A DNA stretch of 64,000 bases, taken from the NCBI GenBank assembly GCA_040756875.1, contig JBFLYH010000002.1, forward strand, positions 32,001 to 96,000, given 5' to 3'. The translations under genes were made by a program, and so were the position numbers. Below the pieces are notes generated by a model that worked only from the letters and a program-made list of their open reading frames with translations, was not told where the DNA came from and searched no databases. Of this stretch, positions 31,401 to 55,400 are shown one piece after another. The stretch comes from a candidate division FCPU426 bacterium. GTDB lineage: Bacteria > Oederibacteriota > JAAXVQ01 > JAUVAV01. Within the stretch, counting starts at the first letter, position 1. Every line of letters starts with the position of its first letter.

Positions 31401-34400
31401 TATTGTCCGCGATCAGGGGCTGCAGGTCGTCCTCGATGACCTCGCCGGTAAACACGCCGCGGGTGTTGAAAACCAGGCGGTTGCCCCTGACCTCGGATAC
31501 CACGACGCCGCGCGTCTCCAGGGTCCGGTTGATTTCTCCCCGGTTGAAGAACATCTGCAGCGATTGCTCGCTGCTACGGCTGCGCACGGCCACCTGGATG
31601 TCCTTGGCGCCGGTCGCGACCCGCAGCCGGTCCGTCAACTCCAGGAAACGCCCGTTAAGCTGCCAGGATGCGGCCTGGCGCCGCAGATGTCCGAGCGTCA
31701 GGCGGTCTTTGAGCACCGCCAGATAATTGCGGTACGCAGGGGCGGAAACCTCGGCGTCGAACCGCTGCCGGGCCTGGTTGTACGCCGTGGTGAACGTTTC
31801 GCGTTCCTCCGGATTGCGGATGGACACGGCGGCAATGTCGCGCAGGCTGAAGCCTTGCTCGGACCGGGGCAAGGTGATGGTTTCGTTGAAATCCGCGTAA
31901 ATCGTGATCGGCTGGCCGGCGTGGAGCAGCCGGAAAGCCAGCTTGAGCGCCCCGCGCCGCACCCGCCTTCCCCACTCACGCCAGTCCAGGGCCCGGTTGC
32001 CTTCCAGATTGACGAGCAGGTGGGCTGCCGACACCAGCGGCACGAACAGGCCGGCGAACAGCAGCCCGCTGGGATTCAAGCCCAGTTGCAAAGCGGCCAG
32101 CAGCACTCCGGTGAGCCCGGTGATGCGCACCAAGGGCGCGCTAAACGCCAGCCCCAACGCCGCGCGCCAGGCCAGCGGCCGGCCGGCGGCGTCCTTCGCT
32201 CCCACGGCGTGCAGAAGATGCCATGCCAGTTGGAACAGACCGAACAGCGCCCAGAAGGGCGGCCCCATGGCCAGGGGCAGGCCGAACGCCCACACCAGCA
32301 GCAGATGCGACGCCAGGGTCAGGGCGCCCACAAACCAGCCGGATTCGACGAGGGCGGGCAGGAGCGCCTGGCCGAGGAACCGCCCCCAGCGGGGCTGGCC
32401 GCGCTGGGCCGCCCGCTGCTCCATGCGGTCGTACCACCCTTGCAGCCACGGCCAGCGTCCGCCGGCCGCCGGCGCCGGGGCGCGGACCGCGGCTTGCTCG
32501 CTGTTCAGATCCTGCGCCACCTGCTGCAACAGTTGCTGCAAGGCAAACCGTTCGTCCAGCTTGTCGAGCAATTCCTGGGGCAGCACCGCCTGGCCCGAGG
32601 CTTCCAGCAATGCCTGGTGTTGAAGCTCCAATCCGTTCTGGTCCAGGCTCATCAGCCTCAGGTAATCCGCGGCCAAACGGGCGCTGTTGTCCTCCAGATA
32701 CTGTTTCTGCCTGAGCGTGTCCCAGTGTTCGATGCGTTGTTCTTCCCAGGCGCGCGTCCGGATATAGGCCCACAAGCCCGAATCCTCCTGGACCTGGTTC
32801 AGGTTGGCGTAAACCGCCGAGAGCTGCGGCGAGATCCCGGCACCCAGATCCTGCCAGCGGGCGACGCTGAGTTTGGCGGCCTGGGCCAGTTCGGCGTCCA
32901 GCTGTTTGAGCCGCCCCAGCAGTTCATTGACCCGGATCTCCTCCTCCGTGACCGGCTGGTCGCTCCGGATGCGCGCCGGCTCGCTGGGCGGACGCGGCAG
33001 GATCTGGGGCGTCAAGCCGCGCCGGTCCCGGTTCAGCAGTTGGGTGCGCGACAACAACACGACATCCTTCGGCTCCTCGGCGTCCGTGGCATGCTCAGGG
33101 CCCAGGATGGCCGGCAGCACCTCGGCCAGGCGGCCTTTCTGCCGGCTGCGCAGCGCGAGGGTCTCATCGCCCACCTGCAGGGTCTCGGGCAGCTGGACGT
33201 TGTAGCCGGCCATGCGCGCGTTTTCCACGGCCAGGGCCAGGAGGCGGCGGTGAGTGTAGTCGATGTCCGGATGGTACCTGTTGGCCGAATCCAGCCACCA
33301 CCAGAAATCGGAATTCACGGCCTGCAACAGGTAATACCAGGCCAGCTGGGTGTAGTCCTGGGGATAGATCACGGGCTGGTCGCGGTACCGGGTGTCCACG
33401 CCGGCCGCGCCGAACGCTTTGATCACCGCGTCGGTCAGGGCCCAGGCTTTGCGCTGCTCGGGCGTGTTGCCCGCCCAGCGGGAGAAGGACCCCAGCCGGC
33501 TGCTGGCTCCGGTGCGGTTGACGGCCGCGCGCACCTGGCGGCCCTGCTGTTCCAGCAGCCGCGTGCGCAGGTGCTGCTGCGCCGGTAGGCTCATCTCCAT
33601 GTCCTGGAAATCTTCGCCGCGATAGTCGGGGCTGGGATTGGTGCGGTTGAGCAGCGTGAAGACCTGCTTCCAGAAATAGAGCCAGCCGCCTTCCTGCCCC
33701 ACCTGACGGAAGAAGGGTGCGGAGCGCTCGCCGTCGATCATAAAGGAGATTTCGAACTGGCTGGGCAGGCCCAGTTGCCGGGCTTTGTTCTCGTATTCGG
33801 GAGCGTGCTGGCGCGGTCCCCAGCCGGGCCGGGGACGCAGCAAATGATCGTAGGCCAGAATCAACGCCGCGGACAGGCCCGCGGATTTGCCGCGGGCGTC
33901 TCCCAGTTCGTCCCTGGCCACATCTTTGGCGGATTGGGGGTAAAGCGTGATTTTGTGTTGAATGCCTTCCGCTTCCCACTGGTAATAAAACCCGGCCTGG
34001 TCGTCCAAGGGCGCAATCTGCCCCTGGTGCATCTTCAACAGCTGCTGCAGAAACGTCTCGGTTACGAAGACATTCCGGATCCCGTGGGCATGCAGACGCC
34101 GCAGGGTGTCCTCGTCCAGGCCGTCCTCGCCGGGCCAGAGCGAATAGAACGGCATGTCGAAAAAGTCTTCCATCAAGGCGGTCATGTAATCCAGGGCGAA
34201 CTCCGCCATTTCCGGATGCTTGAAATCCACTGCATACTGATCGCTGCCGCCGGCGGCCTGCAGAGCACTATTCTGGTCCGTCACCACGGGATAGATGAGA
34301 TGCGGCGCCGCGGCGGCCAGTTCCACCTGTCCGGTCGCGGACAACGGCAGGAGCCCCAGGGCTTCGCGCCGGGCGTCTTCGCGCCGCACGGCGAGCCCGA

Positions 34401-37400
34401 AGGAAATCTGATCGCGGTCCGCGGCCTCCACCACCGTGTTCACGGCCACCAGCCGCGCGGCCGGCGCGATCATGGACAGCACGCGGGTCTGGTCCCGGGC
34501 AAACGCCAGGCAGACCGCCTCGTCGCGCGCCAAGGCGGGCAAATCGGTCTGGGAGGTGTACCAGTACGAAAAATTCACCGTATGGGTGACCGGTTCGCCG
34601 GCGCGGTTGAGGCCCAGCAGGACCGTGCCAGCCGGACGCAGGCTGGGATCGATCCAGGCCGCGGCCTGGCCCAACAACAGCCCCTTGACCTGGGCCTTGA
34701 ACGCCAGCCCCTGCTCTTCACCGGCCAGACGCTGCTTCACATATTCCCGGAGTATGCCCGGGGCGTCGAAATAACCGGCCTGGATGAAGCGTTCAACCCG
34801 TTCCGCGGGATTCTCCACCGCCAGCAGGGCCGCCATCCCCTCCGGCATTCCGGTTTTGTATCCCTCGGCTAAAAATTGCAGGTAATCGAGCAAAAGGGTT
34901 TCGCGCAGGCGGCGGTAGGCCGGGACTTCCTGCACCAAGTTCCGTTCAACAGCGCGGTCCATTTTCAAGGCCAGGAACAGGTCGTCAGCCGTCCAGTCGG
35001 AGAACGGCTTGACGGTGAGCCGGTAGAGCGGATCCACCGCCGTAGCGCCCTCCTTGCCGCTTTCGTCCAGGAATTGCCCGATGATCGTGGCGCGGGCAGT
35101 CTGCGCCTGTTCCTCGGTCCAGCCTTCGGCCGCGCGGCGCTCGTTTACGTCCGCCAGGGGCTCCCACAACCAGGTTTCCGCGGCCCGCACCTGGTTCCGC
35201 AGCTGGTCCACTAGTGAGGCCGAAAGGTTCACGGTCAGTTTCGCCCCGCGCAGGGCCGGATCATACATCGCGGCGAAAGTGGGATAGTAGGTCCGGAGGC
35301 CGTGGAAACGCGCCCAGGCGGATTCCGACTGGTCGCTGCCCATGGGCTGGTGGTCGTTGAAAACGATCTGTATTTTCTTGGGGCGGTTGAGCAGTTCCAG
35401 GCTTTGCTGCAACTGGCGCTCCGTGGGCGAAATGAGGGCGGCCTCGATGCGCTGGGCCAGATAATGCCGTTTGACCGGCGGCACGGCCGGAAGTTCGGGC
35501 CGCAGCCGGCTGCGGTATTGCTGCAGGAAGAAGCGCGTGGTATGCCCGATCAAGGCCAGGCCCGAAGCCAGGATCGCGGTGCCGATCAGGCGGCCCATGG
35601 TCACCACCGGCCCGCCGAAGAGCCACAAGGCGGCCGCGCCCAGCACGACGGCCAGGGGCAGCGGGCTGGCCAGAAGATTGAACGCGCGGCCGCGGAGCAG
35701 GCGCTGGATCGAAGGATACTGCAGGTACCCGGCTGATTCGAGGAACGAAAACACCGCCTGGGCCGTGGCCCGCCAGTATCCCTGCCCCGCGGCCTCGTAG
35801 ATGAGGTACCGCAGGATGGCCAGCTGGAAGGAACGGTCCAGGGCGTCGAAGTGCTTGTGCACGTAGATGATCGGCTGCTGGGCCACGGTCTCGCTGCTGC
35901 CCAGGCGCAGGCCCTGGGTGAAGCGGGAGGAGAGCGATTGTTCGGGCAGGACGCGGAAGATCGGGCGGCGGTAGCCTTCCGGCAGCCGTCCGTTGCGCTC
36001 GACTTCCTCGAGCACGTCCTGCAGGCGCCGGTAGACCGAGGAATTGGTCAGCGCCGGAGTGGCGGGCCTGGCCAGCCGCGCATAATAATATAGGAAGCGC
36101 GGGCCGTAGCTGGCCAGCAGCGTGAGCAAGGTGAGGGCCAGCCAGATGCCAAAGAAGGCCCGGGTGCCGGGGCCGAAGAACCACGCCAGGCTGGCGCCGA
36201 AGGCCAGCGTGGCCAGGACCGCGCCCAGGACCCGCAGGGGCGGGATGCCGTAGTAGCCCAGAGTCGCCCGTTCCAGCAGCGGCCGCGTCAGTGGCGTGGC
36301 GCGGCGGTATTCCTGCTGGCTGCCCAAAAGCCCGGCGGCGAAACCCATGGCCAGGTACTGCAGGCGGATCATCTCGGCCCGGTCGCCCTTGATGCGGGCG
36401 GTTTCGGTCTGCTCGGCCAGGCCGTTCAAATACCCCAGCACCTGCCGGTTGGCCGTGCCGCCCGTGGGATCGGCCAGCAGGCTGGCGAGATACCCCAGCA
36501 GGTATCCTCCCCGGTGCCGTTGATTGTAATTGTCGTCCCCCTGGGCGTTGAACAGCATGACCTGGTCGACCAGCGGGCTCTTCTCCTCCAGCAGGCGCTC
36601 GAACCCATCCACCAGGCCGTTCAGGTTGGCGGCCGGACTGCGCCCCACTTCCTCGCGCCGGTCCACGTTGTAGAACGACCACGCAAAGGGCTCGAAGCGG
36701 CCCTGCACGCTGAGCCGCTCCAATTGCGCCGGACCCAGTTGCAGGGCCAGCGCCTGGGCCTGGCCGCGGCCTTCGGCCAGGTGGAGTTCGCGCTCCTGGT
36801 CCTGGCGGTCCAGATAATGCAAGTACTCCACCATCTCCCGGGCCACGCGTTGGGTGCTGATTGCCTCGGACTGGCCCAGGGAGGCGCGGAGCAGGCGCGC
36901 CTGCCCGCCCGGGCGCCGGAGTTCGGCGTTGGCCTGCTGGAAGGCCCGCATCAGGGCTTGCGGCGTGAAACTGCGGCGGTTGCCGTCGTCCGGGTCCGTG
37001 GTGTCGTACGGCAGCAGGAAGGAGTTGAACTGGTCCTGCGAAAACCGGGTGCCCGCGGGGAACTGCCCGGGATAGTCGGCCTCCTGGCCGCGGTACACGC
37101 AAAACTCGGGGATCGCCCCGTCCGGCGAGGCGATGACCACCGTGCCGTTGGCCAGGTCTTTCATGAAGCCCGTGGCCGAGGCTTCGCGGCCCTCGTTCGA
37201 CCCCATGACCGTGCCGTCCATGCCCGCGGCCAGGGTGCGCATGTCCATGGTGTTGAAATTGGGGAAGAACAGGACGCGGTCCCTGAGCGCCGGATGGGCG
37301 TTGATCAGGTTGAGGAAAGCCTGCACCAGTTTCTGGCTGCCCTGGTCGTCTTCGTGCACCCGGCCGCCGAAAACCATGACCATGTCCTCCTTCAGGAACT

Positions 37401-40400
37401 GCTCGCGCAAGGAGTCGTCGGCCAGCAGCTGGTAGAGCTTTTTCAGCTGTTTGTAGTCCACCACGCGGCGGGTCCAGTGGAAGAAGCGCATGCCCGCCAC
37501 CCGCTCCTTCCAGCCCGCGTCCAGGCCGCAGTTCTCGACCAGCAGGTCCTGCATGGCTGACCGGGCCTTGGCTTTCTCGGCCACCAGCTGCTCGTCGCTC
37601 TGTCGCGCCCAACCGCGGAACCCCGGCCACTGCCAGAACTTCAGGTTGACGCCGTTGGTGATGGAGACCACTTTGTCCCGCACCCGGCGGTAGGTGGGCA
37701 TGGTGCGCATGGTCTGGGCGTGGAGTTTGGCCACGCCGTACAGGCCGTGCGCCAGGGCCGCGATCATGCCGGTGATATGGATTGTGTCCCCTTCCAGGGC
37801 CAGGCGCAGCAGATCCGGGTTGAGCCGGTACCGTTCCAGGAAGCCCTTGCTCTCCTTCATGTGCGCGTATTCCAGGGGCGTATGGTCGTTGAACACGAAT
37901 TTGGCCCGGCCCAGAGTCTCCTGGAATTCGTCCTGCACCAGGGCCGGCAGGGCGAACGTGCCGGCGCTCATTTCGGAGACGATGACCGTGTCCGGGTTGA
38001 TGCCGAGTTTGGCCAAAAGCGCCAGGTAGCCCCGGCCGATCAGGTAGCTTTGCTCCATCTCGATCCGCTTCTTGCGCTCCCATTCCGGGTCTTTCTGGAA
38101 ACGCTCGGCGCCGTGCTTGTCGGCCGAGCCCGCGTAAGCCACGTCGAAGACATTGGGTTCGGTCTCGGCCGGATCGAAATCATCCAGGTAGTAGGTGACG
38201 CTGTCCGTATCCTGGTCGTAATCCTCCCAGACCCGGACTTTGCGCAGGCGCTGGTCGTAAAGCGGCACTTCGAGCACCAGCTGCTGGCCCGGATGCTCGG
38301 GGTCCGGGGCCGGCCGCAGCGCGGAACGGAGCACATCGCCGGTCGTGACCTGCTGCAGGCTGAATTCCGGGTAGGTCACGCCCGCTTCGCCCAGGGTTTT
38401 CACCTGCTGCATCCAGACTTTTTGGTAGAGAGGCGCCACGCTGACCACGCGCCGGATGCCCGGGTCCACGGCCAGGTCCTCCAGGCGGTCGCGCAGGAGC
38501 GGCCCGATGCCGCCCACGGACATGGACATGCACATGGTCTGCAGCACCTTCCGGACGCTGCCGGCTTGCCGGATGGCTTCGTCCAGGCGCTGCCGCCAGG
38601 GATGCCGCGGGTTCTCCAGGGCCTGTCGCGCGGCCTGTTCCATGCGCAGCGTCAGCCGGCTTTCCACGGTCAGTTCCACCACGGTCTTGGCGTGCGGAGC
38701 CGTGGTCGCCAGGCGGGCCAGATGTTCGTAATGGACCTCGCGCGGCCAGTCGAACGCCCGCAGCCTGGCCACGGCCGCTTCGTGGCCTTCGCGCAGGCTG
38801 AGGAGTTCGTGCAGCAGCAGGTAGCGCAAGCCGTCCGGAAAGGCGTTGCCCAGGCGCTCGCGGAAGAAGCGCAGGCGTTCGCCGCTGATGAAGAGGTATT
38901 GGATTTCCTGGCCCTCGAACACCGGGAACATCGTGCCGCGGTTGATCAGTTCGAACAGCTCCCGGCCGGGCCCGGACAGCCGGTCCACGAGTTTGGGGTC
39001 CGCTTCGCGCACCTGCAGCCAGCCCTTGACTTCCCTGGCTTCGTAGCCGCGCAGCAGTTCCGCGTACTGCGGATCCGCGAACAACCCGTCGATGGCATCG
39101 GCCAGCTCGTGCTCCCACTGCCGCTGTTCCACGGCCAGCCGCCGGTTGGCCGCCTGGCGGCCCAGGCCCAGCCGGTTCAGCAGGCCGTCGAACACTTCAG
39201 CTTCGGTAAACAGCTGGCCGGCCGCCACGGCGGCGGCCAGGGGTCCGGTTTTTTCCAGCTGTCCGGCCAGCTGCAGGACCTGGCCCCCGAAAGTGCTGTT
39301 GAGGAACGCGTAGGCTTCGGTCTCCCGCGCCTGCGGCTGGACCACAAACGCGAATCCGGCTTTGGGCCCGCCCACCAGGTTCACCACGGCGTGCGTCCCC
39401 ACGATCACGGCCAGCGCCAGGCCCGCGAACAGGTAGCCTGTGGGATTGAGCAGCAATTGCAGCGTGGCCAAGGCCAGCCCGGTCAGGCTCGTGATCCGCA
39501 GCAGCGGCAGCGAGAACAGCGGCCGCCAGTGCTGCTGAACGAAAGCGCGGACAGCGATTCCGCCGCGAGCCTGCCAGGGCATGTGCCCCAGGTGCCAGGC
39601 CACCTGCAGCACGCCGAAGGTCGCCCAGAACGGCGGACCCAGGGCGAACGGCAGGCCGAACGCCAGGCTGAGCAGGAACGCGCCGGCCAAACTCAGCGCG
39701 CCCACGAACAGGCCGGATTCAACGGCCGCCGGCACCAGGGCTTGGCCCGCCACCCACCCCAGGTGTTTGCCCAGCACGCGGCTTGCCCCGGCTTCCACGC
39801 GGTCGTACCAACCCGCCAGCCACGGCCAGCGGCCGCGGGTGGCCTTTTTGTTGAGATAATAAGTCAGCAGCATCCGCTGGGTCTGTTCTTCCGCCTCGTT
39901 GATGCTCAAGGCGCCGGCCGGCACCCGGGTGACCTCGCCGCCGGGCGCGAGCATGAAAGAATCCCGGGGCACGAGCCGACCCTGCGTCTTTTGGTACATG
40001 GTCAGAAACATCCGCTGGTCTTCCTCATCGCCAGTCAGCAGGTAGCCGCCCTCGCGGACGTCCTGTCCCATTTGCAGGATCCGCTGCTCGCGCTGATCCT
40101 TGTACATGTACAGCACGTTGAAGCAGATCTTCAGGTCCGCCGGCACGTTCTGGCCGAAGGAGGCCTGCACGACCTCAAAGCCGTTGGCCGCGGCAAAAGC
40201 GGCAAAGGGCTGTTCGACCACCCGCAGGTTCGCGGACAAGGTCCCGGCCTGATGGCGTTGGAACCACTCCGACATTTCCTGCAGCCGGCTTTCGTCGTAA
40301 ACCGTCGTGCCGCCGGACTGGAAGCCGGCCAGGAACCTGCCAGCCTGGTCGTAATAGGCGAACTCGCCGGTCTGGGCGTCCGTGACGGACCAGGCCGGGA

Positions 40401-43400
40401 CCAAAACATCGCTGCCTTTGACCATGGCCTCGGGATTCAGGGCGTGGACCGCGGCAGAGAGGTTGGCCACCGTGACCGGGACCGGACCGCCCAGCCCGAT
40501 GTTTTCGACCACCACGTTGTTCCTGCGGGACAGCATGCGCCGCAGCGAGCGCTCCCGGCCTAAAAATCTCCATAGAAGATCGAGCCGGTTGGGCCGGGTG
40601 TTGATGTTGATGAAGCCCTGGAACGGCTGGTCGGCCAGGGATTGTTCGAGTTCACGGATTTGCTGCGGAGTCAGGAGCCTCCTCAAGGCCGGTTTGATCA
40701 GCATTTGCGTCGCGGCCGTGCGGGCCCGGGCGATGATGCCGAAGGACGGATGGAAAAGCAACTGGCGCAGGGTGGCGACCGCGGCTGCGCGCTCTTCGTA
40801 AGACAGCCAGTCCCAGCGGTCACTGATGCGCTTCACCTCGGCCGCGGCTGCGTTGAATTCCATGGCCGGTTGGGCGGCCTGGGCCTGCGCTTCAACCTGC
40901 CGGAGCGGAGCCTGCGTCGCTTCCTGATCGCGGAGGAACCGCGGCGTTTCCCCGGGTCGTGTCTGTATTTCCGCCACCGGCACCACGGCTATTCCGAAAA
41001 TCAGCCGGACGCTTTCCCAAAACGCGGCGGCGAAGGTCCTGCCGCCTGCCTGGTCCTGCGGTTGGACCAGGAAAGCCAAACCCGCCTTGGGTCCGGCCAC
41101 CAGGTTCGCCAGCGCATGCACTCCCACCATCACAGCCAGCGCCAGGCCGGCGAACAAATAGCCCGTGGGATTGACCAGCACCTGCAGCGTGGCCAAGGCC
41201 AGCCCGGTCAGGCCCGTAATCCGCAGCAGCGGCAGCGAGAACAGCGGCCGCCAGTGCTGCTGAATGAAAGCGCGGACAGGGGTTCTGGCGCGCGCCTGCC
41301 AGGGCATGTGCCCCAGGTGCCAGGCGGCTTGCAGAATGCCGAACGCCGCCCAGAACGGCGGGCCCAGGGCAAACGGCAGGCCGAAGGCCAGGCTGAGCAG
41401 GAATGCGCCGGCCAGGCTCAGCACGCCCACGAACAGGCCGGATTCAACGGCCGCCGGAAACAGGGCCCGGCCCATCACCCGGCCCAGGCGCTGGCCCAGC
41501 ACGCGGCTTGCCCGGGCTTCCACGCGGCTGTACCACTTCTGCAGCCAGGGCCAGCGGCCTGAATCGTGCATCATATGGGCCATGATCAGATTTTCAGTCT
41601 GCTTCTCGGCCGCGGCGATGTCCAGATGGCCGGCGGGCATTTCGTAGGGCCCTTCGGGCCCCAGCATGACCGTGCGCTGGGGTTGGAGCCGGCCCCTGCG
41701 TTTTTCATACACCGTGAAAAAGATGCGGCTCACCATCCCGTCCCGGCTTTCGTAGGTTTCCTCCTCGCCCACGAGCAGGACCCCGCCCTCGCGGAGGTCC
41801 TGGCCCATGTCCGCGATCAAGTCCGCCTTTTGCCGCGGGTACATGTACAGCATGTTGAAAACCAGTTTCATATCGGCGGAAATGCCCCGGCCAAAGGCCG
41901 CGCGGGCGATTTTAAAACCGTGCTCAGCGGCGTACGTCTGCAGGGGCCGGTGGTTGGCCGTATAGCCCTCGGGCAGCTGCCGGCCGGGCTTCAGCGACGC
42001 GAAAAACGCCAGGTCGTCCTGTTCGGTCACCGCGCCGCCGGTGGATATGCGAAAAACGCCCATCAACCCGCCGTTCTCATCGTAATAAGCGAAACGTTCG
42101 TTGGCTGCGTCCGTGATCGACCACTCGGGCACCAGGATGTCGCTGCCCACGACCAGGGCCTGGGGATTGAGGCTGTGCACGGTTTCGGCCAATTCGGCCA
42201 CGGTGGACGGTTCCTGGCCGCCGAGCCCGATGTTCTCCACCACGCGCCGGCCCGGTTTCCGCAGCAACCCGCCCAGCATGGCGTCCGTGGCGAGGAATTG
42301 GTTCAAGGCCTGGAGGCGGTTGGGCTGGGTGGACAGATTGATGAATCCCTGGTATGCCTGCCTGGCCAGGGCGTGCTCCAGGGCGGCCTGCTGTTCCGGC
42401 GTCAGCAGCGCGCGCAGGTCATTGATGTTGAGCAGGGCCAGGGCGGACTGGCGCGCGCGCGCCACCACGGCAAAGCGCGGATCGGCCAGCCGCTCCGCGA
42501 CCAGCGCCACCGCGGCTGCGCGCTTGGCGGCTGTGAAGGATTTGAAATCGACTTCCGCGCTGACCAGCCTCCGGATCGTGCCGCCCAGGGCGGGCAAGGC
42601 CAGCACCGGCCACTTCAAGTTCGGGAAAGTCCGCGCCACCCAGTTGTTGAGGCTGTGAATCAGCGACGACGCCAGGAACGCGGCCAGGCCGCCGGTTAGG
42701 GGCAGGTTGGCCTGGCTCAGGCCAAAACTTACGGCAAAATACACGGCCCCCAGCAGCAAGGTCATTCCGCCGGCAGCCAGCCACTGCCTGGTGGTCCAGC
42801 CTTGGTCCCGGTGCGCGACCAGGAACGCGCCGCCGAACACCGCCAGGCCGATCCCGGCGGCCAGGGGCGAGAGGACTCCCAGGTGGAACAGCAGCATGGG
42901 CGCCACGCGGAAAATCAGTTCCTCGCCGAAAGGCCGCAGGCCCTTGGGCACCCAGGGCAGATGCCGCTCCCAGAAGGACAGTTCCAGCTCCACGGACGCG
43001 GATTCGCCCGGCGCGCGCGGTTTGAGCGGCGTCTCCTGCACGCGGGTCTGCAGGCCATGGAAGGATTCCGTGTACAGCAAGTGGGTGAAAGCGCCCGGCA
43101 TTTCCGCGGTCAGGCGTTCGGCCTGGGCCACGGTCCAGCCGGTTTCTGCCAGCGAAAACTCGAATTGCGCTTCCGCGTCCAGCAGGTAGAAGCTCAAGGG
43201 GCGGACCTCACCGGCCTGCTTCTGGTAGAGCACGAAACAGGCAAACGCCAGGCCCTGTTCGTTCTGGGTCTTGCCGGTCAGCAGGTAACCGCCTTCAGCC
43301 AGGTCCTTCCCCATGGTCCGGACGATTTCCGCTTCCTTGCCCGGGTTCATATACATGACATTGAAGCAGGTTTTAATGTCCGCCTTGATCCCCTCGCCAA

Positions 43401-46400
43401 ACGAGGCGACCTGCACGGAAAAACCGTTTTGGCTGGCGAAATACTGCACGGGCCTGAACACCATTTCATAGGTCTGCTGCAGTTCTAGGGACGAGGCAAA
43501 GCGCTGGTACACGTCCGAATATTCCCCGGCCAGCCCGTCCGCCGGGATGCCGCGGGGCGTATACGCCTGGATAAAGTTGCCCCGCTGGTCAAAGTAGGCG
43601 AACCAGCCCGTGGCTTTGTTGCGCAGCATGAACGCCGGCAGGAAAAGGTCGGCTCCGATCACCTGGTTGGCGGGATTGATGCTTTTGGCCAGGGCGGACA
43701 GTTCCGCCGTGGTCACAGGTTCAGGCCCGCCGATGCCGATGTCATTGATGACCGCGCCGGCCGGGCGCTCCAGCAAAGCCCGGATGCCCGGGAAACGAGC
43801 CAGGAAACCCCACACGGCCGAGAGCCGGCCGGGTTCGGTGATCAGGCGCACAGTGGCCGCCTCCCTGAATGCTTCCAGCTTGTCCTGGGCCAATTGCTGC
43901 AGGGCCGGGTCCTCCAGCCCCGGGGCCAGGACGTTCAGGGCGTGCCAGGCGGACATGACCACGCGCAGGTTCGTGTGCAGCAGGAGGTTGATCAGGGTAT
44001 AGGCGTACGCCTCGCGCTCGCCGCGGCCGAGTTCCCCGCGGCGCCATTCGATCCCCACCACCCCGCGCACGATGTCCCCGGCTTCGGAACTGGCCAGCAG
44101 CGCCGGTATTTCCTCCGGGCGCGCGGCTTGGGCGCTGTCTCCGGCCACCACGGCGGTCAGTCCTTCGGGTTGGCGCAGGGAGGCGAGCGAATCCCTGGCG
44201 GGCGGCGAGCGTTCCGGCAGTCTGGCTTCGAGCTGGGGTCGCGCCACATCCGGTGCGGTTGTGACCAGCAGGGTCTCAGCCAGCAGCGCTGTAAAGGAAG
44301 CCCCCAGCTTCCCCCAAACGGTTTTTTTACTGTCAGGCGTCCCTGTTTTCGGCTCGAGGACGCCGGCTTCCGCGCCTTCCATCCCCTTGCCTTCCAAAGC
44401 CAGCACCGGCCAGTTCAAATTAGGGAACGTCCGCGCCACCCAGTTGTTGAGGCTGTGGATCAAGGACGAGGCCAGGAACCCTGCCAGGCCGCCGGTCAGG
44501 GGCAGGTTGGCCTGGCTCAGGCCGACGCTGGCGCCGAAGTATGCCGCGCTCAAGACAAACGTCACGCCGGCCGCGGCTAGCCACTGCCGGGTGGTCCAGC
44601 CTTTGTCCCTATGCGCCACCAGGAACGCGCCGCCGAACACCGCCAGGCCGATCCCGGCGGCCAGGGGCGAGAGGTACCCCAGGTGGAACAGCAGCATGGG
44701 CGCCACGCGGAAGATCAGTTCCTCGCCGAACGGCCGCAGGCCCTTGGGCACCCAGGGCAGATGCCGCTCCCAGAAGGACAGTTCCAGGGTGGGCGTGCCG
44801 GGCCGCTGCACGGTGGGCGGCCGGGCCAGTTGCTGGGCCGCGATTTTTTCCTGCAAGGCTTGTTTGACCGCGGACACCACGTTCAACAGCCGCGGTTCAG
44901 GTTCGTCGAGATGGAGATATCCTTTCAGCGCCTCGGCCGGCTGGAAGAGATAGGCCGGAACGGATTCAGGCCGCGTCTGCAGGTCCGAGGCCGGCACGAC
45001 CACCGGCGCAATGGGCTGGTCGTCGAAGCGCAGCACCCGGCCGGCTGTGCCGTCCAGGTAGAACGTCAGGCCCGCGACCTGGGTTTCAACCACGGATTCG
45101 GATTCAAAGCGCAGGGGAAAGCTCAATTTTCGGGCGGTAAACCCCTCCTGCTTGAGCAGGTTGCTGATTTCCTGCGCACAGGGCCCGCACAGGTTGGGAT
45201 AACGCACATCCGACGTGATTTCCCGCAGGGCTCCGGGAATGGCGGCCAGCACTTTTTTAAAGCGCGTCACTTCCTCCTGTTCGGCCGGGGACAGGGTCCG
45301 GCCGGTTTCAGCCAGCACCCGCTGCAGCATAGCGTCGAAGCGTTCGGGTGTCATGCCTTCATACTCCGGATACATGCGCTCCGGCCCGCTGAAGTGCGCC
45401 ATCAGCATCTTGACCGCATACCCCAGGGTGAACCTTTCGCCTTCATGCACGATGCGCCCCAGGCTGTAGCCGGATGAAGTCCGGTCCATGCGCGCGAGCT
45501 CGTTCACGAGGAATTCGCGCGCCTGCGGGGTTTGCAGGTCCAGGCGAGCCAGGGCTTCAAAGCCCTTCTGCAGCACCGGCACGTGGGGATACAGGCCGCG
45601 GAGCGGCGCTAAAATCTCTTGGATCCTGGCCATTTCCCTCTCCGCCAGCCCGGCCGGCGCCGGCGCGGCCACGGATTCAGCCTCCACCGCGTGCAGCTCA
45701 GGCAGCGCGACCTGCGCAACCTCCCGCCCCTCCTGCGCGGCCCGCAAGCCCAGGGTGATCTCGTAACCCTGCCAAGTGAGTTCCTCGGTTTCCTGGATCG
45801 TCAACCCCTGCGCCGGCAAATCGAAACGGCGGTTGCCCGCGATGATGTGGACGGACTGCGGCACGATCCGGCCGTTTTCTTTCCGGTAAACCGCCAGCTG
45901 GAGGTCATACGCCTTGCCCGGCCCCCGCCAGGCGGAGAGCGAATGGCCGGTGACCAGGTAGCCGCCCTCGTTCAGGTCCTGGCCCATGCGTTCGATGATT
46001 TCGGATTCCCGGCCCGCGTAAAAATACAGCGTGTTGAAACAAAGCTTGACCTCCGCCGGCGCCGTTTCTCCGAAGGAGGACTGCTGGATCTCGAATCCGT
46101 ATTTTTCCGCGTACGCGCGGTACGGGTCCGGCTGGAACGTAAAACCAGTTTGCGGCTTGGCGGGTTGCACGCGGAACTGCGCAAAAGCCGACCGGAAGCG
46201 CCTGGCCCAGGCCGTACTGCGCGTGGGATTGCCCTTGTCATCATAGAGGCCGAGCAAATTGCCGTCCTGTCCGAAGTAGGCGAACAAGCCGTTCGCGGCC
46301 TGGACCTGGTAGGCCGGGATTAATACGTCGCTGCCGACCAGGCGGGTTTGCGGATTCATCCGGCGCAACCGGGTGGCCAGTTCGGCCGTGGTCACGGGCA

Positions 46401-49400
46401 CCGGCCCGCCCAGCCCGATGTCGTTCACCACCGCGCCCCCGCGCCTGAGCAGCAGGGCCCGGATGCCCGGATGGGTGAAAAGAAAATCATGCAGCCGGGT
46501 CAGCCGGCCCTCGAACGTGGAGACCGAGAGCAGGGCGAAACGGTCGTGCTTGGCCAGTTTTTTCCGGACGGCTTTTTGCTGGGCCGGTGAAAGCCGGGGC
46601 AAAACGGCGGTCAGGGTATGGTATGCGGCCATGGCCACGCGTCCGCGGTACGGTTCCATCAGCATCAGCAGGCGTTCGGTGTATTGCGCGAGATCGGCTT
46701 CGGCGATTTCATCGGCCCGGGCTTCGATGGCGCTGATGCCCCGGATCAGCTTGAGCACGCTCGAGGAATCCAGCAGCTCGCCGATCTGCGCGGCCGGCGC
46801 GGCCACATCGGGCCTGCGGGGCAGCACCGGGATGCGGCCCGGCTGGATTTCCATGTCCGTGCCCGCGAAGCCCGTGGCCCGCAGGTACTCGGGCAGCCCG
46901 GTTTCCAAATACCGGCCCAAGGCTTGCGTGAAGTCGCTGGCGCGGGTGAGCCGGGCGCTGACGCTGCCCCAGGCCTCCTCCAGGTAAGCCCGGCCTTCCA
47001 CCGGCCCCAGGGCGTCCATCACTCCGTCGAAGATCGCGTTGTCCGGCCGTACACGGAAGGCGAAGAACACCGGGAACAAGGCGATCAAGGGCGCGAACAG
47101 GCCGCGCATCCGGCTGGTCACGGCCAGGCGCTTGGGCCCGTAGAAAGCCGAATAGTACATGACCTGCGAAAACGGCTGGCGCCGGAACGGCATGGGGAGC
47201 AGCCCGTCTCGGTCCACCAGCTTGGGCTCGGCTCCCGGTTCGTCGGGCAGGATCATGTTCTCCGGTTTGGGGTCGAACAGCACCCAATTGATGCCCGTGC
47301 GGTCGCGCAGATATTTCAGCACGGTCAGGTAGGAACGCACGGCCAGGCGCGGCACCGAACCGTTGACCGCCGGACTGGCCTCCTGCACCTGGTCCAGGGA
47401 CCGGCCGTGGATGAACTCCTCGGCCATGATGCCCTGGTCCACGAAATGGAAGCTGGGCATGTTGGGATGGCCCTGCAGCCAGAGCTGGCGGATGCGCGGC
47501 TGGAGGAGCGCGACCCAGCCGACCAGGCGCCGCGGCACTTTGAAGGCCACGTCCACCTGCCGCTGTTCGCCGTTGGCGAAAGTGACCTGCGTTTCCACGC
47601 GGTACGCCCGTTTGAACGCCCCGCCGCCGGTCGGCGTGATCTTGACGTCAGGCCCGATCCGCTGCACGCGGGCGCCCGAGGGCAGGGCCAGGCGGATGGA
47701 GCGTTCGAGCAGCCGTTTGCCTTCGACGGCCCGCTGGATGCGTTTGCGGTCCGCGCCGGGAACATCGGCCGAAAAATCCAGCGCCAGTTCGCGGACCACG
47801 CCCGCGGGTTCAGCCGGCGCGGGCCGGGACTGCCAGCGGTAGAAGAGCAGCAGCGCCAGCACCATGACCGCGCCCAAGGCCGCGCTGCCGGCCACGGCCA
47901 GGGAAAAGAAGCCCAGGACATAGGCGGCCAGCGGCAAGGCCACGGCCAGAGTGAAGGCCCCGGCCGCCAGTAGCCACCGGCTCCAGGAAAGGGCGGGGTG
48001 CGTTTCCGCCGCCGCCGGGGCCGCGCCTTCGGCCCGCGAGCGGCGCGTGACGCGCAAACCCCGCGTCTGGCCGCCTTCCGCAGTCATAAATCCGTAGAGA
48101 TGGCAATCGCCGGCCGTTGGCATGGAGACGCCGATCTGGTCCACGTTTACACCCTGCCAGGCGCTGGTGTCCACGCTGATACGGCCCACGAATCCCGCCC
48201 CCAGGTCAAAGGCGCTTTCGCCCACTTTCTGGCCTTTGCGGTAATACACCAGGGTGAGATGCGCGGTTTCCGCGCGGTGGTTCATCACGGCCAGGCGCAG
48301 GCTGTCCCCCAGCCGGCCCGGAATGATCCGGGCCTGCGCTTCCTGGGAACCGATGGCGTGCAACAGCAGGTTCGGGGCGCGGGCCGCGCGGGGAATGAGG
48401 CCCAGCCAGTAGGCCGGGTCGCCCCAACGCGGCGTTTTCTGCTCGTCCGCGGGCGACGCGGGCCGGGCCTGGTCGAAGAAACTGGCGAAGAGGCGGACCG
48501 CGCCGGGATGGGCCGCGAGAATTCCCGCCGGTTCGCCCGGATACAGCTGGCCGAGCATGTCCACGAAAGCGGCGTAGGCCGAGTACAGCAGCCCGCGCCC
48601 CTGCAGGCTCCGCCCCAGGCCCTGGTGTTCGATCTGGACGCGGGTGCCGGCCGCGGATTCATACCGCGTGAATTCCCAGATGAACAGCGCGCCGCCCACG
48701 CCCTGGTCGACCTCGTAGGCCCCCACGGTCTCAATGGCCTGGGCCAGGCTGAATTTGGGCGCGATCAGGATGCGGTGCTTGAACTTGTGGCGGTCGCGCG
48801 CCTGCTCCGGGATTTCCGGGAACTGCATGCTCAGGTAGACCAGGGCGTCGTCCGGCACGTCCGCCAGGTCGGTCCGCAGGGCTTCGATGATCCTGCGCTT
48901 CAACTCCACGTAGGGGATGTAGTTGTCCGTGTCGAATATTTCCTGCAGCCGGATGGTGAACGGCACCAGGGGCCGGCCCCGGTTGTTCTCCCGCACCATC
49001 ACGGTTTCCAGCTCGCCCAGCCAATGCGGCGTGTCGAACAGCGTGAACCGGGCGCGGTCCTGCCGGGCCGAGAACAACCGTCCGAGGGCGATGACCAGGG
49101 CCGGCGCCAGCAGCGCCTGGGCCAGCAGGCGCGTCAGCCACCCGTTGACGAGCCGGTAGCGGACCGTGCCAGGCGTGAAGCGGTCGAGGGGCAGGCCCAG
49201 GGCCTTGAGGCCGCGCACGGCCCAGCGCCGGGCCAGGCCGTCGAACGCGAACATCACCCAGTTGCCGTCGCGCACCACCCGGCCGTGGTTGTCGTAGAAC
49301 TGGCGGGTGGCGGGTACGTAGGTCCCCAGCGGCGCATTCAGCAGCCGGCTGGTGGCGTCCAGCTTCCGCCACTCCTCGAAGGCGAACACCACCTTGGAAA

Positions 49401-52400
49401 ACTCCACCAGGAAGAAGGAGTACAGCGCCCCGAACACCAGCGGATTGGCCGTCAAAAAGCCGGCTGCCACGCTGAGCGCCAGCCACCAGGCCATGCGGCC
49501 CAGCAGCCCGCCGAGCGAGATCCGCTCGCGGGGCAGGCGCGTTTCTAGGCGGCGGTCGAACCAGGCGCTCGTGTCCGCGAACTGCCGGCGGTAGGGCTGC
49601 TGGCGGGTCTGCACGCTGAAAGCCGAGAGCGCCACCGCCACCCCGCGCCCCGGATCCTCCAGGGCGGCGTTGAGCTGGTCAATGGTCAGCCCCCGCAGGC
49701 GGGAGATCGGCAGCGTAAACCGGCCCGCGCGCTGGCTGGGCAGTTCCACGACTGTTTCCTCCACGGTCCGGTTTTGCTGGACAAAGGACAGGACCACGCG
49801 GACCGGCCGGTCGCTGCTTTGCTCGAACCGGAATTCCAGGCTGTCGCCCAGGTGAACGGCCTGCAGCCGCTGCATGGCCGGCGCTTCGGCCGTGGTCTCG
49901 GGGCCGAGTTCCACGGCCAGATCGACGCCCTCGTCCGTCAGCACCGCGCTGCGGCTGAGGTCGTCGTTGACCGCCAGTTCCACGGGCGCGGCGATCCACA
50001 GGGGGCTGACGGAGGTCACGGCCCGGTTCGGGTCCCGGCGCAGGTTCACCAGGCCTTTGGATTCCAGGTTGGCCAGCAGCATCTCTTCCACCTGGTTCAA
50101 GCGCAGCACCACCAGGTCATACTGCCGTTGGGCGGCCAGCACGGCCTGGATGCGCTGGAGCAGGTTCTTCTCTCCCGGCGACAGCGAGCCGTCCTCCCAG
50201 CCGGCCAGCAACGCGCTCCGCGCCGCTCGGGCGGCAACCGGCAGCCCGGCTGCCGCGGCCCGGCTGGGCAGCCAGCCGCGGCCCGGCGTATATAATAATG
50301 TATCCGAAGTCAGCAGGCCCGCCAGCTGCTGGCCGGACACCGGCTGGAACAACCGGAGTTGTTCCGGAACGACGATGCCCTGCTCCAGGAGCCCGGCCCT
50401 GAGCTGCCGCTCGTATTCCTCGGCCTGCGCCTGGGACAGTTCCCGCGGATGATACCAGACGCGCAATCCCTCCAGGGCCTCGCCGGTCATCAACTGGTTC
50501 GCGGCCAGCAGGCCCGTTTCCTCGGAAATGGCCGCGATCCCCGCCAGCCGCCCGTCCTTCCCCGCCTGTTCCACCAGCTGGTCTAATAGCGTCCGGACCG
50601 GCGCGCTGCCGTTGGGCTGGAAAGCGGCCAGCTGCGCCACGCGGTCGGGCGCAGCCGCGCCCAGCAGCTGCAGGCCGTTGAGGAGCAGATGGGCGTTGAG
50701 CCAGCTCGTTTCCCGGTCCAGCAATTGCAGCAATTCCACGGTGGCCGTTTCGAAAGCTTTCTTGGTCTGCCGGCGGCTGGCCAGGTAGGTCCAGAGCAAC
50801 ACGGCGTTTCCGCGGATCAGGGGATTGCGGTTCCACAGCAGGGGCCTGATCAGCGCCGGGTTCTGCTGGTTCAGCAGGCCGTGGAAGGCCTGGAAGCGCG
50901 TGCCCGGGTCCGCGTCGCCGAGCTGCCGGATCCAGTGCAAATAGGTGTCCGACGGCAGGGTGGGAATGCTCTCCCAGAAAACCGTCAGCGGCCCGGCGAC
51001 CCAGTCCAGGATGTGCGCCAGGCCTTCGGCCAGGATGCGGTTGACCAGCAGGTGCGCGAAAGTGCCGGGCCGGGTGCGCCGCAGGTCCAGGCCGAACCAG
51101 GACAGTAACTTTTGCGCCCAACGGTGGGCGTACACCTCGTGCGCCCAGACGATCCAGTGGGATTCGGGCACGCCGTTCACCGAACGCATGATGGTGCCGG
51201 TGTTGGGATTGTAGGTGGCCACCGGTGTGGCCCAGCTCCGTCCGGCCGCGGGCAGCTGGCGCCATTGCGAGAAGGTGAACAGCAGTTTCGCGGACGCCAT
51301 GGTCAGATAGGGGATGGCGATGGCCAGCAGGCCGGGGAGCATCCAGGCCGCGGCCACCAGGCCCACGGCCAGCAGGAAGGACATCAGCGCGCCGGGCAGA
51401 TTCAGCGGCAGCAGGCGGCGGGCCGGATCATCGGCCGGGAGCCAGCGCTTGGCGCCGGCGCGGACATAGTCCGTTTCGTAAACCGTTTCGAAAACCCGCT
51501 TCATGCCCGCGCGCAGGTCGCGAAGGGCCGGTTCCCCTTCGCGCAGCAGTTTTTCGCCCAGCCGGAGATACGCGTCCTCCAGTTCCGCCGGCGTGTAGGT
51601 CCGGGTCTCGAAATCAGTCAGCTCGCCGGTCCGCTCCACTTCATCCAGGCCCAGCAGCAGCTTCACCGCCCCCAGGTCGCCGGAAATGGCCAGGTCGAAG
51701 ATGGAAGTCAGGCTGTAGGACAGGCCGTGGACGATGAACTCCGCGCCGTATGCGCTGAACTCCTTCCAGGCGGCGAACCCCAGCGTGCCCCAGCCCGAGA
51801 GCAGTTCCAGGGACAGGTCCACCGCGTGCTGCACTTCGTGTTCTTCGGTCACCCGCGCCAGCAGCTCGTAGATTTCCTCTTCGCTCAAGCCTTCGAATTC
51901 CCAGGCGAACAGCCGGTTCGCCAGCCCGATCACCTCTTGATTGGGCGTTTTCAGGCGGTACACGCCCTGGGTGGGAGCCGCAGGATCCAGGCGGGAATAA
52001 ACGTACTGCCGTTTTTGGGAGAGCGCGGCGTACACCACCCGGGCGTCCTTGCGGATCGCGTCCTCCAACATGGCCGGATGCTTGAAATCCTCCAGCAACA
52101 AGCCCGTGAAGGGCGGCAGCAGCGCGGTGTCGATCAGGCTTTTTAAACGCCAGAATTCCAGCGCGCGGCCGGCCAGCTGGCCCCGGTCCACGCGCTGGGT
52201 GATGCTGAACGGAAACAGCATGGGCGCGGCTTCCTCGCCCGCAACGTCGGGCTTGAGGCGCATTTCCAGCAGGTAATATCCGAATTGGGCCAGCAGCCGG
52301 TTGAGGCTGGCCCGGGCCTCCATCATCCGCGCTTCCTGCTCGGGCTGGGGATTTTCCAGGTACTCGAAGAGCACGTTGAATAACCCCGGCGCCACGCGGT

Positions 52401-55400
52401 GCATCTGGCGCGAGAGCTCGAACACTTTCTGCTTGAGCCCGTCCGGGATGCGGGCCGGAGGCTCCTCGGTATGCCGCAATACGTCGGACAGTTGGGGCAT
52501 GACTTCATGCATGAGCTGGTCCACGGCCGGGTGCTTGTATTTGGCGGGCTGCGGAGCCACGATCCGGCGGGCGCTGGTCTGCTGGGTCAGGGGCATGAGG
52601 CGGCGCGCGATCCACAGCCCGGCCACCAGCAGCACGGCCAGGGGAATGGCCGCGGACAGCGAGAGGGCCCCGGCCCAGAACAGCAGGCCCAGTCCGGCCA
52701 CCAGGGCAACGGACAACCCCACGGCCAGGCCCGTGCTCTGCAGGAAGAAATACAGCAGCGGCGAGCTGACGGTCAGGGTGACCGGAGCCAGGGACAAACC
52801 GGCGTGTGCGACCAGCCAGTCGTGCTGATATCCGGTGACCGACAGCACCAGATCGCGGGCTTCCGCGTGGGTGAACCCCTGGTCCTCGAGCCATTCATGG
52901 AAGAGGATGGCCGCGGCCTCCCGGTCCTGGACCCGCGCCAGGGTGCGGGCCGCCAGAAAACATTTGCCGTCCAGGTGGAAGGCGCCCAGGCGCTCCAGGT
53001 CATCGTCCGTGGCTGCCGGCCGGGTCCGCGCCTGGCGCACCATGAGATGCAATGCGCCGGGATCCGCCACGGCCTTGGCCAGACGCCGGCCCTGCGGCCG
53101 CGATTGGTATTTGCGCTGGGCTGTTTGGACGAACCCCAGCCATTCCTCCGTGATCCGAGGGCCGCGCGCCCGATCGGCTTGCTGCAGCGGCAGGGCATGC
53201 AGGGCCTGGGTCGCGAACAACGCCCCCAGGAGCTGCGCCACTTTCCGCTGGGGCAACCGGGTGAGCACGAGCAGCGCCCGGCCGGGCCGGATCATCATGT
53301 CGAGCGTCGCGGCCGCGTTGCGCAGCGCGCGCTCCAAAATCACCTCGGCCGGTTCGCCCAGAAACGCGGACGACAGGGGCAGCGCGCGCCGGGCCTGCCG
53401 GGCCAGGTGCTCCAGCACGTCCAGAGGAGAACCCAGGCCGCCGGCCAGCCAGGTCCAGGCCGCGTCCTTGGGCGCTTCGCCGAAGTATTGGTCATAGGCC
53501 GGGTCTTCGGCCAGGGCCTCACGGAATTGGTCGGCGATCCGCATAAATTGTTCGTCCTCCGCGATCAGGCTCGCGTCCCGGACGCGCAGGAAAGCGGCGG
53601 CCATGGCAGGCGTAACTTCCGGCGTCTGCAAGTCCCGCAGCATCTGGACCGCGGCGTCACTTTCGCCGGCCGCGGCCAGGGCATAGGCTGCCACCAGCCG
53701 GCGCATGGCCGGGGTCAGCACGGACAGCGGCAGCCGGGCCTGGTCCTGTTCGCGGCGGGCATTGGCCGCGGCCAGGGTTTGCGCGAGGCGCTGCTTGCTT
53801 TCAGCCGGCAGGTTGGCCGCGGTCCACAGGCTGTAGGCGGGCATGGCGCTGGGCCCGCCGCTTTTAACGTAGATGACGAAGCTGAACAGCCGGCCGGCCC
53901 ACTCCTGCTCGCCGAGGATGGGCGCCACATTCTGCACCGGGCCCAGGCTGATGATCCGGCCGCGCGCGTCCGCCAGGCCGTTTACCGCCACCTGGCCCTG
54001 GCCGAAATGCGTGCCTTCCAAAACCAGGCTGCGGAATCCTGGCGAATGAATCAGTTCCAGATTGCGGTTGCGTACGCTGTTGGCGTCCGGCTGGACGCCG
54101 GAGCGATCCCGGGGCGCGTAACGCAGCCCGCCGATCGCCTCCACCACGCCCAGGAGTTCAGCGCGCGTCATGGCCGCGAGCAGGGCCTCGGCGCGGAAAC
54201 GCTCCAGTCCCAGGGCCTCAGCCACCTCGTCCGCGCCCAGGGTTTCGGCGCCTTGGTCAAACAAGGCCATGACCCGGGCCTGCTGCTGCTGGCGGTGGAA
54301 GAACAGGTTGGTGTGCAGGCTGTACGGCGAGCGGGGGCTGATGAATTCCTGCCACGTCTTTTCGGGCACGTCCGCCCAGGCTGCGCGGAAATCGCGCGCC
54401 GCCCGCTGCTTCTCCGCGGCCGTGGCGTGCTCGCGCCGCAGGAGCTCGCGTTCGATGTCGCGCCATTCCTCGGCCGTACGGATGCGCACCCGGCCTGCGT
54501 CCGCGTTTTGGCCGATGAAGGCGGCCCACACCTGGGACGCCGGCGCCTCACGGACCGTTCCCCAGACCGCCGCGGCCTCCGGGGCGGACGGGGCGGCCGA
54601 AGCCTGCTGCACGCCGGCCGCGGCCCAGGCGCCCCAGTCAAAGCCTGTTTGCGCCCCGCGGTCCGCGGCCCAAGCCGCGAAATCGCGCTGCGCGTAGTTT
54701 TCGAAAGCCAGGTCCCCGCCCCCGCGCCGGTAGGCCAGCCATTGGTCGTAAAACGCCCGTTTCGCAGGATCGGACAACACCTCGTACGCTTCGTTGACCA
54801 GTTGGAACAGCCGTCCGGCCTCGGGATCGTCGGGATGCAAATCCGGATGCAGGGCGCGGGCCTGCTGCCTGAACGCGGACTTGATCTCCTCGGCCGGCGC
54901 GTCGGACCCCTGCTCCAGGCGGCGGTAATAATCCTTGGCCTGCAATTCGGCCACGCGGTCCGGAACTTCGAGCCCGGCTGCCGCGATCAACGCTTCGTTC
55001 GTGAAACCCGTGACCTCGAGCACCGCTTCCACGGCCGCCTCATGCGAAAGCCCCAGGGTCTCCAGCGCCTCGTGCAAAATCACGGCCGCAGCTTCCCGGG
55101 TCGTCAGGCGGTTGAATGCTTCCTGCGTGAGATAGACGCCGCCCAGCAGGTGGAACGCGCCGACCCGCGCCAGGTCCGCGTCCGTATCCACGCCGGCCGG
55201 CGCCTGGTTGCGCTCCAGCAGGTTGATCGAAAGGGTCCGTGCGTTCAGCCGCCGGTTTTGCACCGGCGCCGTACGCACGCTGAACAGGCGCTCCGCGTGG
55301 GCGAGGTAAGCGGCCAGTTGCTCCCGCACCGGCGCGGCGCGGCGGGATTCCGCGTCCTCGAGGGAACGGCTGGCCAGCGCCTGCCGGGTCCACAGCGCCC

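Follow-up and report, generated by a model that had tools for sequence, protein, structure and literature searches.

A duplicated four-helix membrane module resembling the core of CPBP/Rce1-type proteases flanks a methyltransferase-like domain in a giant bacterial protein

We analysed a 64,000-nucleotide stretch of DNA (the window; G000:C2:32001-96000) from an uncultured candidate division FCPU426 bacterium whose 3.22 Mb genome is assembled in 7 contigs; the same stretch is also present in one DNA sequencing run labelled as a groundwater metagenome, and no RNA run was listed as containing it. Throughout, G000 denotes the genome under study, G001 that of a sister species in the same genus, and other G-numbers related genomes. 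The window carries a giant open reading frame (ORF) on the minus strand (28453..63999), which encodes 11,848 amino acids (aa) within the window and continues past the window end, the full open frame in the contig comprising 12,450 aa (G000:C2:60453-97805); aa positions are numbered from window base 63999 downwards. Within this frame, two copies of a 135-aa membrane module stand on either side of a methyltransferase (MTase)-like domain, and each copy bears three motifs that recall the intramembrane proteases of the CPBP/Rce1 type. We propose that the module may be a divergent and much reduced member of that group, and weigh this reading against three others.

Copy 1 of the CPBP-like module occupies 44383..44787 (minus strand, aa 6405-6539, 135 aa) and copy 2 occupies 42583..42987 (minus strand, aa 7005-7139, 135 aa). 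Each contains, in the same order, GEELIFR (44707-44727 in copy 1, 42907-42927 in copy 2; aa 6425/7025), FLVAH (44611-44625, 42811-42825; aa 6459/7059) and IHSLNN (44443-44460, 42643-42660; aa 6514/7114), all on the minus strand. These three strings occur twice each in the giant ORF and nowhere else in it, and the members of every pair are spaced 600 aa, or 1800 nucleotides (nt), apart. The repeat unit is 405 nt long and its copies differ by 53 mismatches (86.9% nt identity, 88% aa identity), with 85% DNA identity at the same 1800-nt spacing over the sub-stretch 42595-42894 / 44395-44694, while the 90 nt flanking the repeat on each side are only 22-33% identical, which is the random level. A strict regular expression for the ordered triad of motifs finds 7 matches among 4.13 million residues of six-frame ORFs of the genome, including the two modules and one true CPBP protein, with about four attributable to chance; it is unlikely that chance produced the triad here.

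Self-comparison of the giant protein, together with local profile hidden Markov models (HMMs), places the two modules in a longer string of alternating membrane and soluble units on the minus strand. It begins with MTase A (45733..46755, aa 5749-6089), upstream of module 1 (here delimited as aa 6405-6535), after which comes a linker of about 100 aa without a family match (44080..44382, aa 6540-6640) and then MTase B, the 'cargo' between the modules (43078..44079, aa 6641-6974). Module 2 (delimited as aa 7005-7135) is followed 5 aa past its end by MTase C (41551..42579, aa 7141-7483), which in turn abuts a first copy of a different membrane module, TM2 (41056..41559, aa 7481-7648); MTase D (39829..40848, aa 7718-8057) and a second TM2 copy (39331..39834, aa 8056-8223) complete the string. 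At least three kinds of membrane module serve as spacers between the cytoplasmic domains of the giant protein.

MTase B was modelled from an alignment of 10 paralogous and orthologous sequences (pLDDT 84.6) and has a class I S-adenosylmethionine (SAM)-dependent methyltransferase fold. A fold search with the model matches at least 162 PDB chains at E ≤ 0.001, and the best 50 of 500 matches are SAM-dependent methyltransferases, CheR included; among the matches listed, the highest TM-scores belong to the CheR chains 5y4r, 5xly and 5ftw (0.32-0.36 on the query, 0.41-0.50 on the target). The glycine-rich SAM loop contributes a GxGG motif, with G116, G118, G119 and D145 invariant in 10 MTase copies, and a 'CFNxLYM' stretch is also CheR-like. 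The domain resembles the CheR-type protein glutamate O-methyltransferases in fold and in both sequence features, but differs from them by an additional N-terminal portion made of helices and an insert rich in beta structure, and falls short of the Pfam CheR threshold (PF01739, 27 bits): single copies score 13.7-18.4 bits (E = 0.0015-0.04), and 45.5 bits are reached only when the scores of several copies within a 3000-aa piece are added together. An earlier note on this DNA, made from the sequence alone, had called the insert between the modules methyltransferase-like, and the fold matches make that description correct at the level of fold.

The module itself, predicted with AlphaFold2 from a 16-sequence alignment as a 146-aa piece, forms a confident four-helix bundle (pLDDT 79.8, pTM 0.70) with helices at residues 20-40, 46-63, 71-97 and 101-125. 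On helix 1, the Glu-Glu pair and the Arg of motif 1 fall within the first third; His64 of motif 2 comes immediately after helix 2; and on helix 4, His116, Asn119 and Asn120 of motif 3 fall within the last third. Arg and Lys residues precede helix 1, follow helix 4 and occur in the helix 2-3 loop (HRDxGW), and the other two loops are uncharged. By the positive-inside rule, both module ends and the helix 2-3 loop would be cytoplasmic, and the conserved polar residues would lie on the cytoplasmic side. Prediction of a module homodimer returned a score of 0.00 and no verdict either way. The motifs reported in the earlier note, their order on four helices and their exact 1800-nt duplication are all borne out by the positions in the string and by this model.

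For residue conservation we used 16 copies of the module from 10 genomes, with identities down to about 40%. Invariant in all 16 are E28 (the second Glu of motif 1), F31, R32, P35, H64, W69, W74, A77, T81, H116 and N119; N120, four residues after the His of motif 3, is present in 15/16 and replaced by Glu in G001 copy 1. The aromatic residue of motif 2 is likewise kept in every copy (Phe, with Trp in one), and motif 1 takes the form EExxxR in 12/16, EExxR in 1/16 and QExxxR in 3/16. The retention of five membrane-buried polar residues at about 40% identity argues for a working site of some kind.

The module is confined almost entirely to one bacterial order and to very long frames. Among 1.84 billion representative proteins only 7 relatives were found, and six of these reach E ≤ 1e-10; the lengths are 2,015-5,657 aa for five, 378 aa for one and 97 aa for the last, which is a piece. 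It is present in 11/15 genomes of the order (E ≤ 1e-5), always within long frames (up to 12,659 aa), the shorter module-bearing frames sitting on fragmented contigs, and in 12/41 genomes of a wider sample, where the sole match from beyond the order is weak (E = 0.0017). A 16-sequence profile found no match at E ≤ 0.01 among proteins of 60-273 aa or of 274-2000 aa, both searches being limited by word pre-selection, and a 7-sequence profile search of the genome contigs recovered 3 loci and nothing further.

The earlier note had taken the three motifs to be the catalytic motifs of Rce1/CPBP intramembrane proteases, and this agrees with PMC11980579, in which the CPBP domain comprises four transmembrane helices (TM4-7) and the catalytic motifs of Rce1-type glutamic intramembrane proteases are EExxxR on TM4 and HxxxN on TM7. 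In both MmRce1 and MrtX, the latter a protein of seven membrane helices, the first Glu holds the catalytic water together with the His (PMC11980579). Each motif of the module falls where that architecture would have it: GEELIFR in both window copies near the start of the first helix (20-40), FLVAH at the end of the next (His64 right after helix 46-63) and HSLNN on the fourth (101-125).

Profile comparisons point in the same direction at low strength. Single window modules score 15.3 and 17.3 bits against Pfam PF02517 (E = 0.025 and 0.0061), the better match spanning positions 15-92 of the 93 in the profile, and a majority of the module set (10/16) matches PF02517 at E ≤ 1, more than for any other Pfam family. 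A whole-genome search with PF02517 at E ≤ 1 returns six matches, namely four true CPBPs and the two modules, the latter below the cut-off (15.4 and 13.3 bits). Compared by hhalign with a set of 32 true CPBP domains from its own clade, the module alignment gives P = 3.2e-4 (score 28.8, probability 39%), and a relaxed alignment brings all three motifs into register; five negative controls (reversed profiles and two other membrane modules of the giant protein) give P = 0.11-0.41 and scores of 11-16. A language-model search, which we treat as a lead only, ranked second an Atlas cluster that is 81% PF02517 (score 0.84), and its top ten family-bearing matches all belong to one family or clan.

Against this assignment stand several results. 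Neither window copy reaches the curated PF02517 gathering score of 22.4 bits in the Pfam scan; an HMM of the 32 clade CPBPs gives the modules just 0.7-9 bits; and an HMM of the module, searched against the ORFs of the genome, misses its four true CPBPs. The module profile finds nothing at E ≤ 10 among PDB sequences, where a true CPBP of the same genome reaches MmRce1 (4CAD) at E = 4.9e-7. With the structural model, Foldseek finds no PDB match at E ≤ 0.001, and across Foldseek and two VIA searches (wide and second look) there were generic helical bundles only (Z ≤ 7.5), Rce1 not being among the matches listed. A rival Pfam family, MntP (PF02659), slightly outscores PF02517 on the two G000 copies (E = 3e-4); we treated it as compositional because it covers 39 residues, a single hairpin, and matches only 2/16 members. 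The seven-to-eight-helix architecture of full-length CPBPs, in which TM1-3 contribute to the substrate cavity, is also absent, since the module has sharp edges, no equivalents of TM1-3, and flanks made of soluble linker and MTase domains. The active-site residues weigh on the same side: the first Glu, catalytic in Rce1, is replaced by Gln in 3/16 copies, and one copy has the shortened EExxR. In G001, copy 1 ends in HSFNE and copy 2 begins with QELIFR, so neither has a complete canonical set, and with a first Glu that varies in this way a classical Rce1 mechanism is hard to uphold for every copy. An NCBIfam scan of the module gave nothing beyond a weak sorting-signal match (E = 0.015).

The order and helix positions of the motifs and the weak profile signals speak for the CPBP assignment made in the earlier note, and the sub-threshold scores and the empty PDB profile search speak against it. 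We consider true but very distant CPBP descent fairly probable on the sequence comparisons, and do not file the module as a CPBP member, as the likeness, plausible but unproven, is too weak for proof.

The evolutionary history of the repeat is clearer. Copies described in the earlier note as near-identical deserve that description over one tract of 170 nt (42818..42987 versus 44618-44787, minus strand), which holds the N-terminal half of the module with motifs 1 and 2 and contains 5 mismatches, and not over the unit as a whole, the remaining 235 nt accounting for the other 48. Overall, the two G000 copies differ with dS 0.38 and dN 0.07. In a maximum-likelihood tree the G000 copies pair together (support 92/88), as do the G001 copies (91/81), and three copies from G011 group together (87/91). 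Since copies cluster by genome though the flanks of copy 1 and of copy 2 are orthologous between G000 and G001, the pattern is that of gene conversion between old duplicates, and the 42818-42987 tract is probably a recent conversion tract.

What lies between the modules differs between the two genomes. At the position occupied in G000 by the linker and MTase B, G001 has about 900 aa with a DUF1152 match (E = 1e-7) and no similarity to the G000 protein. Copy 1 of G001 is without the C-terminal 'NLxWPxLxL' tail and copy 2 without the N-terminal 'LELxFWE' helix, which places the cassette junctions at module edges. G003 has one module and one MTase-TM2 unit, and in G011 and G014, of a second family in the order, the module is present with no MTase domain detected at 1e-4, so that it is not specifically tied to methyltransferase cargo. 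The suggestion that the DNA repeats could drive gain or loss of cassettes thus finds comparative support in the conversion tract, the clustering by genome and the different cassette of G001.

The earlier note had also allowed that the repeat might prove to be an assembly artefact. We conclude that it is not, because the copies differ at 53 sites, contigs of sequencing run X1 tile the region at an even depth of 54-59 and break only within the shared tract, and the separately assembled G001 also carries two copies. No 1800-nt deletion joint was seen in the X1 contigs, which hide rare variants and which may derive from the source sample.

Taking these observations together, our preferred reading, which we hold with about as much confidence as doubt, is that the lineage-specific 135-aa module is a stripped-down, divergent CPBP/Rce1-type domain with a predicted functional polar site, set in a tethering string. 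The module would be the equivalent of TM4-TM7 alone, with the conserved Glu and Arg of its helix 1, the His that closes helix 2 and the His-x-x-Asn-Asn of helix 4 converging on one polar site in the cytoplasmic half of the bilayer, facing the compartment where the neighbouring SAM-dependent domains have to act. As a string, [MTase A]...[module 1]-linker-[MTase B]-[module 2]-[MTase C]-[TM2]-[MTase D]-[TM2], these units would tether cytoplasmic enzymes to the membrane. Gene conversion keeps the two copies alike, and the copies mark the borders between which soluble cassettes have been swapped over time. The residue pattern suggests that the polar site may be functional, whether hydrolytic or ligand-binding and of a glutamic-peptidase type, rather than ballast; we would put the odds of a working site, whether for catalysis or for binding, at a little short of even, with a small share for self-processing and the balance for a mere anchor or an unrelated module.

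The module may instead have nothing to do with CPBP proteins: a lineage-specific four-helix unit could have acquired its Glu/Arg/His/His/Asn network independently, as an ion or metal site or for helix packing, with the likeness owed to convergence or chance. We regard this as unlikely but as deserving serious weight, given that every homology measure is sub-threshold, that fold searches list generic four-helix bundles at Z ≤ 7.5, that matches among 1.84 billion representative proteins number just 7, all of them relatives from long proteins, and that spurious membrane-protein matches are similarly strong (MntP at E = 3e-4, FtsK_4TM at E = 1e-4). It must contend, however, with three motifs whose order, spacing and helix positions are as they should be, down to the aromatic residue that typically precedes the Arg ('EELIFR'), with a regular expression that yields only about 4 chance matches in 4.1 million residues, with PF02517 as the sole family common to most members (10/16), and with an hhalign signal well above the five negative controls. 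Somewhat further from favour, and to our mind rather improbable, is descent from CPBP with loss of activity, the module now being only a membrane anchor, hairpin spacer or docking site. Non-catalytic CPBP members do exist, such as CflP according to PMC13692083, and PMC7387801 describes a CPBP-family member said to act in lipoprotein N-acylation instead of proteolysis; the loss of the first Glu or of the Asn at +4 in some copies, the missing TM1-3 and a giant protein that spaces its domains with three or more types of membrane module fit this idea as well. The invariance of five membrane-buried polar residues in 16/16 copies at about 40% identity nonetheless exceeds what an anchor needs.

The earlier note had favoured a built-in processing enzyme that releases cargo; on this reading, active CPBP proteases would cut the giant polypeptide in cis or between copies and release the MTase or other cassettes. 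Catalytic-type residues are indeed kept over 16 copies, the site would face the cytoplasm, where tethered linkers would be present at high local concentration, and two published parallels lend themselves to the idea: PrsW peptidase domains, distant CPBP relatives, occur fused to toxins with autoproteolysis predicted (PMC3482391), and for giant Omnitrophota proteins cleavage by their own C39/S8 peptidases has been proposed (bioRxiv 10.1101/2023.11.21.568195). Yet no cleavage-site motif was found to recur at the domain borders, and only 5 aa join module 2 to MTase C. Cys residues number just 15 over the 11,848 aa of the giant ORF and adjoin no membrane helix, so that a lipidated-Cys site of the Rce1 or myxosortase type is not evident. 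The first Glu is lost in 3/16 copies, the G001 copies are not fully canonical, TM1-3 are lacking, and G011 and G014, from the order's second family, have the module but no MTase cargo for it to release. On this evidence we find release of cassettes by self-cleavage improbable, more so than loss of activity. We give least credence, and very little, to a membrane-tethered processing line in which minimal four-helix glutamic endopeptidase modules and CheR-like carboxyl-methyltransferases, alternating along one chain, cut and methylate a membrane-proximal peptide, or to a self-processing polyprotein with recombination-swapped cassettes; the processing line, if real, would parallel in a bacterium the eukaryotic succession of Rce1 and ICMT.

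The remainder of the giant ORF and its surroundings contain further features of note. Pfam identifies in the ORF two NTP_transferase units with beta-helix, a glycogen-phosphorylase/glycosyltransferase-like stretch, an HD domain and four weak CheR-like matches. A DnaJ J-domain sits mid-chain in the giant membrane protein (~54745-54933, aa 3023-3085, E = 1e-19), which suggests recruitment of Hsp70 to the giant chain. An in-frame block of ~1,320 aa (55546-59511, aa 1497-2818) is missing from the G001 orthologue, has a GC content of 59.2% against 67.3% in the remaining ORF and matches no Pfam family; it looks like a recently inserted cassette. The TM2 family, which directly follows MTase domains, occurs at a third site (31996-32460) and has its own conserved Glu, WHxxH and HxxxN. 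Neither CPBP nor the CPBP-like module is significantly similar to it, and TM2 was ruled out as an additional CPBP relative (hhalign P = 0.25-0.34, with no Rce1-like Pfam match).

Yet another membrane unit, an HExxxH-like module of two membrane helices and a juxtamembrane segment bearing 'AHExxAHRW', is present in four copies (63106-63594, 59083-59589, 50968-51423 and 49066-49503). The motif is intact in 3/4 of these copies and partial among relatives, and the module recurs in each of the four related giant ORFs that were inspected and in one ORF of contig C3 (6,158 aa). We considered it as a rival built-in metalloprotease and set it aside, the motif being missing from some copies. At least two further giant frames are present in the genome, one of 12,551 aa (G000:C1 from 375288, plus strand) that shares the MTase-like domain with the giant ORF of the window, and the 6,158-aa frame (G000:C3 from 16707, minus strand) that shares the HExxxH-like module.

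Downstream of the giant ORF on the same strand lie a 2,611-aa ORF (20439-28274), for which only a weak LysM match was found, a GT4 glycosyltransferase gene, Ppx/GppA, a tandem adjacent pair of thymidylate-kinase-family genes (14760-16189, minus strand) and a gene for a radical-SAM protein, followed by genes of the dcw cluster (rsmH, ftsI, murE, murF, mraY, murD). This neighbourhood of GT4, Ppx/GppA and dcw genes indicates ordinary chromosome and no mobile element.

Three known systems offer points of comparison. The CPBP/Rce1-like proteins (PF02517; MmRce1 4CAD; MrtX) have the same EExxxR, FxxxH and HxxxN on helices 1, 2 and 4 of a four-helix core, forming an intramembrane polar site. The module differs from them in scoring below threshold, in being without TM1-3, and in being internal to frames of 2,000-12,000 aa and never standalone; its first Glu is variable, its invariant Asn stands at +3 (with a second at +4 in 15/16), and a lipidated-Cys substrate is not evident.

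In the PrsW-toxin fusions described by Zhang et al. 2012 (PMC3482391), a membrane peptidase and exchangeable soluble domains share one chain, autoprocessing is predicted and cassettes are exchanged by recombination, within a wider CPBP/PrsW/APH-1 group. The PrsW domains there have about eight helices and are N-terminal, with C-terminal toxins destined for export, whereas here duplicated four-helix modules stand inside the chain, on either side of enzymes of cytoplasmic type. Pfam scans of the modules gave no match to the PrsW family.

A closer counterpart in scale is found in the 'Archaeovorin'-type Omnitrophota proteins (West-Roberts et al. 2023, bioRxiv 10.1101/2023.11.21.568195), which are encoded by ORFs of >10,000 aa with many membrane helices and interspersed methyltransferase, glycosyltransferase and other enzymes, and for which cleavage by built-in peptidases is proposed. 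Those proteins carry C39/S8 peptidases and SecA-like domains, none of which appear in Pfam scans of the giant ORF here, and the preprint states that membrane regions were excluded from structure prediction. The terms 'CAAX' and 'CPBP' are absent from the main texts of that preprint, of a 2026 Omnitrophota preprint and of PMC11573180. In the literature searched we found no description of CPBP-like modules within giant bacterial proteins; the supplements of the preprints could hold relevant domain tables. What we describe is a minimal, internal and duplicated CPBP-like core within a giant multi-enzyme membrane protein, with membership of the family unproven.

These results bear on the construction, membrane insertion and possible cleavage of bacterial giant proteins that exceed 10,000 residues, whose membrane parts the published surveys we consulted did not analyse. 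If the modules are true minimal CPBP enzymes, the N-terminal helices could be dispensable to the work, or the re-use, of the Rce1-type catalytic core, and giant proteins would gain a candidate built-in processing activity for which the module-MTase-module arrangement provides a small testable fragment. Whatever their function, gene conversion homogenises these repeated membrane modules, which serve as fixed points for the exchange of soluble cassettes in the evolution of giant genes.

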